From: Candidatus Omnitrophota bacterium
GTDB taxonomy: Bacteria > Omnitrophota > Gorgyraeia > Pluralincolimonadales > Pluralincolimonadaceae
Assembly (NCBI GenBank): GCA_043798215.1
Contig: JAZDOX010000087.1
Location: forward strand, 1-51,023
Direction of reading: 5' to 3'
Length of the DNA stretch: 51,023 bases
This document shows positions 22,234-23,064 of the stretch, one piece after another. Position numbers and translations under genes: made by a program. The notes under the pieces were generated by a model. It had not been told where the DNA came from. It was given only the letters and a program-made list of their open reading frames with translations, and made no database searches. How positions within the stretch are numbered: the stretch's first letter is position 1; every line of letters starts with the position of its first letter.

Positions 22234-23064
22234 TTGACGGGTTTAGCGAAGAGAATAATACCTTGTCTTGATGTCCAAGAGGGCCGCGTTGTTAAGGGTG
22301 TTAAATTTTTGCAATTGCGCGATGCCGGCGATCCTGTTGTAAGCGCTTCTTTTTATGAGAAGGAGGGCGCCGACGAGCTTATTTTTTTGGATATAACGGC
22401 CAGTTACGAGAAGAGAGGCATAATGCTGGATGTTGTGCGGCGCGCGGCCGAAAATGTCTTTATGCCTTTGACAGTTGGCGGCGGAATTAGGAATTTAACC
22501 GATATTCGAAATCTTTTAAGCGCGGGCGCGGATAAGATCTCGATAAATACGGCGGCAGTAAACGAACCCTCTCTTATATCAAGAGCCGCCGCTAAATTCG
22601 GGACGCAGTGTATAGTAGTCGCCATTGACGCTAAATTAGTCCAGAGTCCAAAGTCCCCGCCTACGCCAAGGCTTCGGCGGGCAGGCACAGTCCACAAAGG
22701 AAAATCGTCGAATAGAAAATGGCAGGTTTATACACATGGCGGCAGGACGCCTACAGGTAAAGATGTCGTTGAATGGGCAAAAGAAGTTGAAGAGAGAGGC
22801 GCCGGTGAGATCCTGTTGACTTCTATGGATATGGATGGAACCAAGAAAGGCTACGATCTTGAGCTTACCAAAGCGGTCTCTGAATCCGTCAATATACCCG
22901 TTATAGCTTCGGGAGGCGCCGGAAATTTGGAGCATTTGTATGAGGCTTTAACGAGGGGCAAGGCAGACGCTGTTCTCGCGGCCTCCATATTTCATTTCAG
23001 AGAATTTAGCGTGCCGCAGGCAAAAAAATACCTTAAAAAAAAAGGAGTGGCGGTAAGAATATGA
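22234..23064 (+). CDS. hisF: IGP synthase cyclase subunit, with an in-frame repeat insert
   Basis: [44 protein letters not shown] start 22234 behind aggag. Confidence 0.97.

Follow-up and report, generated by a model that had tools for sequence, protein, structure and literature searches.

The hisF gene considered here belongs to the his operon of a Candidatus Omnitrophota bacterium (assembly GCA_043798215.1, contig JAZDOX010000087.1; "the window" is the whole stretch of DNA that was analysed, 51,023 nucleotides of that contig). In the loop that follows a catalytic aspartate of its product it carries two short repeats, one inside the other: a 30-nt hairpin placed within a run of 7-nt units, with the reading frame open across both. 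These are probably two nested selfish or neutral repeat insertions, tolerated and translated, which resemble the Rickettsia palindromic elements (RPEs) in their action and are not themselves RPEs. Both layers would be transcribed and translated within HisF, as neutral or slightly harmful passengers rather than as functional parts of the enzyme.

From its 5' end the expanded loop (Table 1) reads TTA; GTCCAGA, GTCCAAA, GTCC; CCGCC TACGCCAAGGCTTC GGCGG GCAGGC; ACA, GTCCACA; and AAGGAAAATCGTCGAATAGAAAA. An initial annotation, made from the letters of the window, had described a 30-nt block at 22656-22685 that lies in frame and splits a heptamer, and its letters, its coordinates and the 19 residues that it saw gained after IDAK are all correct. 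The C at the junction is ambiguous, so that the brackets 22656-22685 and 22657-22686 are equivalent; the latter is exactly codons 154-163, in phase 0 and free of stops. Joining GTCC (22653-22656) to ACA (22687-22689) gives GTCCACA and makes heptamer 3 whole. The palindrome of that description is present in an imperfect form, with 12-nt arms (22656-22667 and 22670-22681) that are 83% complementary and 2 nt apart, and the stem of the hairpin reaches 6 bp through the pair C22656-G22681. Tandem Repeats Finder (TRF) reports the left part of the heptamer run at 22638-22656, with period 7, 2.7 copies and 91% match. The hexamer AGTCCA is found 10 times over the whole window against 12.25 expected, 3 of the 10 inside the 57 bases of the nested repeats, and shuffles of the window gave no match to the 30-mer.

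Table 1. Positions in the window of hisF and of the parts of its expanded loop (TRF, Tandem Repeats Finder)
Feature	Position	Strand	Basis
hisF (imidazole glycerol phosphate synthase cyclase subunit), intact, 288 amino acids	22198..23064	+	Open reading frame, profile matches, invariant columns
Expanded loop, codons 147-174, 28 residues, between K146 and W175	22636..22719 (84 nt)	+	Structure matches, AlphaFold2
Layer 1, left part: GTCCAGA 22639-22645, GTCCAAA 22646-22652, GTCC of heptamer 3 22653-22656	22639..22656	+	Sequence, TRF
Layer 2, 30-nt hairpin: CCGCC TAC GCC AA GGC TTC GGCGG GCAGGC	22657..22686	+	Second copy, repeat family, contig edges
Layer 1, right part: ACA (end of heptamer 3) 22687-22689, heptamer 4 GTCCACA 22690-22696	22687..22696	+	Sequence
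A-rich spacer and decayed second arm of the layer-1 element, AAGGAAAATCGTCGAATAGAAAA	22697..22719	+	Alignment to the hisF of genome G018

The gene that holds these layers follows hisH (20627..21331) and a hisA-like open reading frame (ORF). Its ORF matches Pfam His_biosynth (PF00977) at E = 1e-85 and scores 389.6 bits on the NCBIfam model TIGR00735 (hisF), whose cut-off is 294.55; on the WbuZ model it reaches 286 bits, under that model's cut-off. All invariant columns of a 43-sequence alignment are retained, D25 and D144 among them. D144 corresponds to position 130 of T. maritima HisF (chain 1thf, offset 14), and D25 and D144 are the counterparts of Asp11 and Asp130, the two catalytic aspartates of that enzyme. 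Elsewhere in the genome a second HisF-like gene (G000:C98:7359-8168), 47% identical to the HisF of the window, may be a paralogue of the WbuZ/HisF2 type. Among the homologues there is also a protein of 384 amino acids (P0002) with an internal duplication of ~130 residues around the insert-bearing loop.

Comparison with other HisFs sets the expanded loop apart. HisF was found in 40 of the 41 genomes searched (G014, at 68% completeness, gave no match), and the 29 orthologues with returned loci were aligned; G016 stands outside the alignment, though its HisF matched in the same two pieces. Each of the 14 aligned HisFs from the same family has a 5-residue loop of the type IDAK-RKGKS-WEVY, so the loop is not one that these orthologues share, in keeping with the insertion that the initial annotation had proposed. 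Solved HisFs align to query residues 16-148 and 175-288 with ~3 residues between, against 26 in the window, which places ~23 extra residues right after the strand of the catalytic aspartate (beta-5). An AlphaFold2 model built from 43 sequences has a mean predicted local distance difference test score (pLDDT) of 85.9. The barrel is kept in it, at pLDDT above 90, with strands 139-148 and 174-179 on either side of an insert that lacks secondary structure and falls to pLDDT ~50 at residues 151-170. The insert comprises just 28 residues; no intein family is among the Pfam hits of HisF, and no intron family was found in the locus that spans hisF (L001).

The 30-nt block belongs to a family. In this genome (G000; 1.82 Mb in 125 contigs, 43.9% G+C) the 30-mer recurs at C23:5336-5361, where a match of 26 nt differs by two compensating changes, from CCCGCC/GGCGGG to CCTGCC/GGCAGG. 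A structural scan for stem(5)-TWC-NNN-NN-NNN-TYC-stem finds 25 perfect copies, and the 16-nt core TACGCYAARGCTTCGG has 23 matches at up to 1 mismatch. The shared architecture is an outer stem of 5-6 bp, the inner module TAC-GCY-AA-RGC-TTC, the returning stem and an RCARG tail; a longer form replaces the central AA with 17-24 nt. When 29 copies are aligned, 6 of the 9 stem pairs are changed on both sides and pairing holds in 97.9% of the cells, where sliding the partner gives 33-58%, a covariation count that is partly circular for the 25 of 29 copies picked by a script that requires pairing. Less biased support for covariation comes from copies found by sequence alone and from matches in other phyla, and mixed forms of the inner pair (GCC/GGC or GCT/AGC) are few among ~70 listed matches in the phylum. 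One could suppose instead that the loop is a native, lineage-specific extension of HisF that is repetitive by chance. The length of HisF loop 5 varies among bacteria, the palindrome is imperfect and its folding energy is ordinary, all of which would suit that idea; it is nevertheless barely credible, since the compensated 26-nt match elsewhere in a genome of 1.8 Mb, the 25 family copies and the absence of shuffle matches contradict chance.

Copies of the hairpin are met in coding sequence as well as between genes. Seven of the 25 fall within open frames, whose lengths range from 289 to 3269 amino acids. These seven stand in both orientations and use three forward reading frames and one reverse, four of the six in all: one in hisF, four in an ORF of 3269 amino acids on contig C52, one on C87 and one in an ORF of 1794 amino acids on C50; the other copies are intergenic. 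Those of the C52 ORF, which stand in both orientations, read as SSYAKASEDK, SSYAEASEDR and CPPKLQRRR. The C50 copy sits in the one frame that normally holds a TAG, and TTCG in place of TACG removes that stop, as would be expected if copies in coding frames undergo translation and selection filters them. The giant C52 ORF, which has a paralogue at the start of C87, contains at least four hairpin copies together with a GTCCAYA array. Cysteinyl-tRNA synthetase was considered as a second clean insertion into a housekeeping gene and set aside: a Saccharibacteria copy is in frame there, in a linker that is variable, with 9 extra residues relative to structure 1li5 and none relative to 8qhp.

The outer layer is also a member of a repeat family, which upholds the view in the initial annotation that there are two layers. 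With the 30 nt removed, the window reads GTCCAGA GTCCAAA GTCCACA GTCCACA, four units as in the hisF genes of genomes G018 and G039 (loci L004 and L008), and the peptide becomes LVQSPKS-TVH, against LVHSPQSIVH in those two. In the same loop, G018 has (GTCCACA)x4, GAAAAAGA and (CTATCGA)x4.4, and G039 has (GTCCACA)x4. The downstream stretch of the window, AAGGAAAATCGTCGAATAG..., aligns in decayed form with the A-rich spacer and second array (CTATCGA) of G018, and this second arm folds no more against the first (z = -0.27 as RNA, -0.11 as DNA). In other lineages the loop holds (CGCATAC)x3, (CCAATAC)x5, CAGACAG, CAGAAAA with an inverted partner, 8-mers in inverted arrays or plain palindromes, so that the tandem units of the relatives are for the most part heptamers and vary with the lineage. 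A loop of the LVHSPQS...LSTIDYRLST type recurs in 7 more of 43 HisFs (P0004, P0005, P0006, P0010, P0013, P0047 and P0050). In a HisF tree of 71 sequences, calculated with the loop excised and P0002 excluded, the LVHSPQS type is scattered over no fewer than five distinct supported clades, interleaved with short loops, which points to frequent gain, loss or exchange of arrays at this site. Protein sequences also reveal small blocks, GC-rich in their coding, that break arrays in the same loop of P0030 (TCPPNLGRRG), P0010 (PARLHFGG) and P0090 (PPKADQ...); these seem to resemble other hairpins, and nesting would thus appear to recur. Beyond what the initial annotation saw, then, the heptamer layer is common to and variable among other Omnitrophota HisFs, and the 30-mer family is tied to tRNA 3' ends.

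Across the genome, period 7 is the commonest class of tandem repeat, with 148 of the 770 TRF rows at a score of at least 30. Heptamer arrays of at least 2.7 copies number 109, of which 59 lie in open frames of at least 200 amino acids; 16 pairs of arrays stand within 40 nt of each other around an A/T-rich spacer, 7 of these pairs in frames of that length. Further GTCCAYA arrays occur at two loci of contig C36 and in the 3269-amino-acid ORF. The hisH gene of the same operon has (CGGACAG)x4 and (CTGAACG)x4.7 around an A8 spacer at 21037-21106, adding 23 residues (GQRTAHSRQKKNLNAKRYMLNAE...) that are missing from most same-family HisH proteins; other HisH relatives have different inserts at the same spot, for example the GTCCACA-coded KSPQSTVHSPQ of G039. 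Between genes, inverted arrays (AGCGTAT)x4.6 / (CTAAACG)x3.3 at 678-737 form a long DNA hairpin of -16 kcal/mol (z = -4.22). An imperfect CAAATGT(CA) run at 40994-41028, just upstream of a TTGACA box and between divergent genes, is perhaps part of an operator or promoter and not one of the heptamer-array elements.

These observations suggest an order of events. An element in which an A-rich spacer parts a GTCCANA run from another run, roughly inverted, would have entered the loop first, since the heptamer array exists in relatives that lack the hairpin. The 30-nt hairpin would have come later, into heptamer 3, exactly between two codons and with no target duplication longer than 1 nt; that it came second and recently is suggested by its absence from sister genera, the core being found at up to 1 mismatch in none of the 16 other genomes of the family. 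Both layers may have persisted through a total length that is a multiple of three, the lack of a stop in the frame used, and a disordered excursion that spares the barrel. Two variants of the insertion event were rejected on length. If the stems had been made from target sequence at insertion hisF would have gained 25 nt, and a 5-nt AGTCC target duplication needs a gain of 37 nt; either breaks the frame.

As a working guess, the hairpin might be moved by a single-strand mechanism that makes no target duplication, of the HUH/Y1 transposase kind, which would fit the lack of duplication, the two orientations and the asymmetric tail. There are 4 Y1_Tnp matches in the genome; the one near a copy is a split gene (C23:3734-4301), ~1.0-1.6 kb from the C23 copy of the 30-mer, and its N-terminal half scores 25 bits on NF047646 (REP-associated tyrosine transposase, RAYT), whose cut-off is 80. 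Beside this split RAYT-like gene lies an intergenic cluster (L002 1300-1660) of at least four different GC-rich hairpins, one of them a GTAG-type palindrome on the other strand and another (GTCATTCCCGC...GCGGGAATCCAG) recurring at the transfer-messenger RNA (tmRNA) locus L038. GIY-YIG nucleases were rejected as a general mobiliser: of 13 loci in the genome, a single one has a hairpin within 300 nt, and for another the distance is 911 nt. Hairpin copies do have small GIY-YIG ORFs beside them at the tmRNA island of C57 and at one locus from Verrucomicrobiae. The window, too, has a small ORF for a GIY-YIG nuclease (47546-47764; 13 matches in the genome, mostly short ORFs), directly upstream of tRNA-Pro (47811-47887).

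An alternative route to the same arrangement is that heptamers already holding a hairpin were copied as a composite into the hisF array, for instance by gene conversion or template switching. In the giant-ORF locus of C52, the order AGTCC-CCGCC-loop-GGCGGGCAGGC-ACAGTC is followed by GTCCAYA heptamers, so that stem, tail and junctions are those of hisF with another 8-nt loop; GTCCAYA arrays at the two C36 loci, and the scatter of one heptamer type through at least five supported HisF clades amid short loops, would also suit exchange between arrays. Set against these, the loops of the hisF and C52 composites differ completely, which means that neither is a simple copy of the other, and the nearest full copy of the 30-mer, that of C23, lies outside any heptamer array. 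We think transfer as a composite possible and rather unlikely; a nested insertion is the outcome in either case.

In this genome the hairpin is strongly associated with tRNA and tmRNA 3' ends. Eleven of 22 hairpin loci lie within ~210 nt of a tRNA or tmRNA gene, where simple arithmetic gives ~1% for random places, and 6 of those 11 start right at the CCA end (tRNA-Thr, Arg, Leu, Val and Ala, and tmRNA). At the tmRNA locus (L038, G000:C57:497-1456) hairpin copies come after the 3' end of the gene in tandem units of 52 nt, together with a GIY-YIG ORF of 80 amino acids and a second copy of the last ~26 nt of the tmRNA plus half a hairpin; the whole has the look of an integrated islet whose attachment sites are duplicated. 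Another locus (L041, G000:C84:30841-33705) has two ORFs of 370 and 213 amino acids with a Fic motif, each bracketed by a repeat of ~50 nt that contains the hairpin and is present in three copies. An integron attC reading of this array was dismissed because, judged by the attC consensus, R''/R' boxes are not at the element ends.

The family is also widely spread. Within the phylum the core occurs in 26 of 401 genomes, G000 included, against one hit each in 2 genomes for a reversed-pattern control. A scan for CCTACGCYAARGCTTCGG over one genome per species returned at least 118 loci; those listed come from Omnitrophota, Bacteroidia, Saccharibacteria and other Patescibacteria, Bradyrhizobium, Mesorhizobium, Rickettsiales, TM6, Geobacter, Dehalococcoidia, Verrucomicrobia, Elusimicrobiota and more. 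Among 123 matches listed, the further stem positions are complementary at all 3 in 65, at 2 in 53 and at 1 in 5. The 65 of 123 that are fully paired, against ~1/64 by chance arithmetic, argue that the matches in other phyla are true members whose stems are specific to each copy. For the 118 loci listed outside this genome, 27 have a tRNA or tmRNA within 200 nt, and 16 have a frame that stays open over almost all of the 418-nt locus, so that there too just a minority of the copies would be coding. Viral contigs supply 26 loci with the hairpin, 17 of them with full stems. A cmscan with Rfam over 15 loci with many copies matched tRNA, tmRNA and, weakly and below threshold, other places, with nothing on the hairpin; the literature within coverage (subscription journals lie outside it) gave no description of the hairpin core, the coded peptides or the Omnitrophota repeats.

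Such breadth invites the thought that the insert has been co-opted, either as an RNA hairpin in the his operon message (for pausing, processing or stability) or as a basic peptide, PRLRRAG, at the catalytic face of HisF. A 14-nt inner module that stays constant across many phyla would favour this, as would the tRNA and tmRNA 3' ends (those 11 of 22 loci here, 27 of 118 among loci listed elsewhere), which hint at shared recognising machinery, and a loop that directly follows the catalytic aspartate. We consider co-option improbable all the same: orthologues of the same family manage without the insert, the copies stand in unrelated genes, in four of six frames and both orientations, and the insert region is modelled as disordered. 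Nor can tRNA or HisF function in this lineage depend on the hairpin, whose family was not found in any of the 16 other genomes.

How well the join between hairpin and gene is supported can be judged in part from read-side data, here the Logan contigs of four metagenome runs. In run X2 the summed contig depth over 22647-22703 is 2355-4282, against ~2-20 in most flanking bins (up to 56), and loose contig ends cluster at 22654-22656 and 22686-22687, so that the part shared by the family coincides to within a base with the block delimited in the initial annotation. One might imagine that an assembler threaded a repeat very common in the sample into hisF: metagenomes of the same kinds contain the element in extreme abundance, and contigs obtained independently stop at its borders, with none from the four runs bridging it. 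Such an artefact is very unlikely, as the flanks are the two halves of one hisF, ordered and in frame, the length of the block comes to exactly 10 codons, and the pieces of the split heptamer complete a unit; other in-frame copies are known in long ORFs, and similar nested blocks appear in the same loop of P0030, P0010 and P0090 from other assemblies. A phase-variable contingency locus would have a perfect tandem array whose number of units differs among close strains and shifts the frame; here the array is short and imperfect, and no strain-level variation was seen in the contigs of the runs, which break at the element.

Several points nevertheless weigh against two nested, passive insertions. 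No contig of the four runs bridges 22617-22687, all of them breaking at the element, so the join rests on the assembly that gave the window, and an empty-site allele of this exact hisF was not found among HisF relatives or in those contigs. The nearest HisF, P0003 (80% identity by BLASTP; tree support 100/99), has a different loop. The insert is positioned on the catalytic face of the barrel, which leaves room for a function. The C52 composite indicates that a hairpin-plus-heptamer unit may have been copied whole or exchanged between arrays. No clear mobilising enzyme was found in the genome, just one of its Y1_Tnp matches, and that one split, being near a copy. To these may be added the partial circularity of the covariation count and the dependence of the tRNA link and of the cross-phylum spread, among the matches listed, on exact-pattern scans. 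Finally, folding is not exceptional, at -14.5 kcal/mol for the 34-nt RNA (z = -0.94 against shuffles) and z = -0.18 as DNA; the case for a hairpin element thus rests on the repeat family and covariation and not on thermodynamics.

Nested insertion of two passive repeats invites comparison with several known systems. RPEs are described as palindromic elements present in many copies, often in frame in housekeeping genes that have no relation to one another, where the fold can accommodate them; they are ~150 bp long, fall into ten families, have a conserved peptide and are confined to Rickettsia (PMC10969869). The hisF hairpin is similarly palindromic, with 25 copies of which 7 are in long open frames, and it has struck a housekeeping gene and added a peptide. 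Unlike RPEs, for which ~100-150 bp and a conserved peptide coded in one frame would be expected, it is 30 nt long, uses four of six reading frames, is nested in a second repeat, occurs in another phylum and belongs to a family found in many phyla. The likeness to RPEs drawn in the initial annotation therefore stands for behaviour, a palindromic repeat in frame in a housekeeping gene, and falls for membership, on size, frames, host phylum and cosmopolitan distribution; the two are set apart by description.

Repetitive extragenic palindromic (REP) sequences are defined by a conserved GTAG tetranucleotide directly beside a palindrome; they lie outside genes, and each is restricted to a species or genus. 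The hairpin shares with REP/REPIN elements an imperfect, GC-rich palindrome of 20-40 nt, an asymmetric flank, many copies in both orientations and the lack of target duplication. It differs in having no GTAG beside the palindrome (the lone GTAG, on the complementary strand of the 29-copy alignment, lies in an internal loop between two helices), in being cosmopolitan and partly coding, and in that the one RAYT-like gene seen near a copy is split. The window does have canonical GTAG/CTAC REP-like palindromes, at 6926-6950 and 7006-7084 between two large ORFs, the second of them a doublet; there is a near-copy in C34. Miniature inverted-repeat transposable elements have terminal inverted repeats and a target duplication and typically measure 50-500 bp, whereas the hairpin has 30 nt and a junction overlap of 1 nt.

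For the outer layer, the closest parallels are bacterial heptanucleotide repeats, which are described as the commonest long class of simple repeat in many bacteria and, in cases such as the TAACTGA of marine Beggiatoaceae, as mostly intergenic and direct, upstream of start codons (PMC4679880). Layer 1 is like these in its short 7-nt runs at many loci per genome; it is unlike them in the 59 of 109 arrays in long frames, in the 16 pairs and in that the folded examples pair as inverted runs. Tandem repeats of Borgs, which are archaeal extrachromosomal elements, are described as fast-evolving, located in ORFs and creating intrinsically disordered regions (PMC9879509). The heptamer layer resembles them in adding a disordered protein segment, and differs in its bacterial host; its own 7-nt unit keeps the frame only by sets of three.

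If the preferred reading holds, in-frame selfish repeats, a textbook oddity of Rickettsia, extend to a candidate phylum of free-living bacteria, where the unit has one-fifth of the size and lies within another repeat. Two leads from this locus are possibly new: a cosmopolitan, tRNA-linked hairpin of 24-30 nt that reaches from Omnitrophota to Bradyrhizobium, Saccharibacteria and viral contigs and is absent from Rfam, and the heptamer-array hairpins of Omnitrophota, which recur in one loop of HisF and one of HisH. Either could explain many of the odd low-complexity peptides in proteins predicted from metagenome-assembled genomes, and either could serve as a natural experiment on the tolerance of TIM-barrel loops. 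In practical terms, such inserts inflate the apparent novelty of proteins and break assemblies. A wider and doubtful extension is that the hairpin is a horizontally spreading, undescribed mini-hairpin, TAC-GCY-(AA or 17-24 nt insert)-RGC-TTC in a variable stem, found in phage contigs as well as in bacteria of dozens of phyla, with a preference for tRNA and tmRNA CCA ends; together with the heptamer-array hairpins it would form a translated, transposase-less "hairpin within hairpin" system that repeatedly colonises the same surface loops (HisF, HisH and giant surface proteins). Were this true, it would amount to an ultra-small, transposase-less class of mobile DNA that keeps making disordered protein loops.

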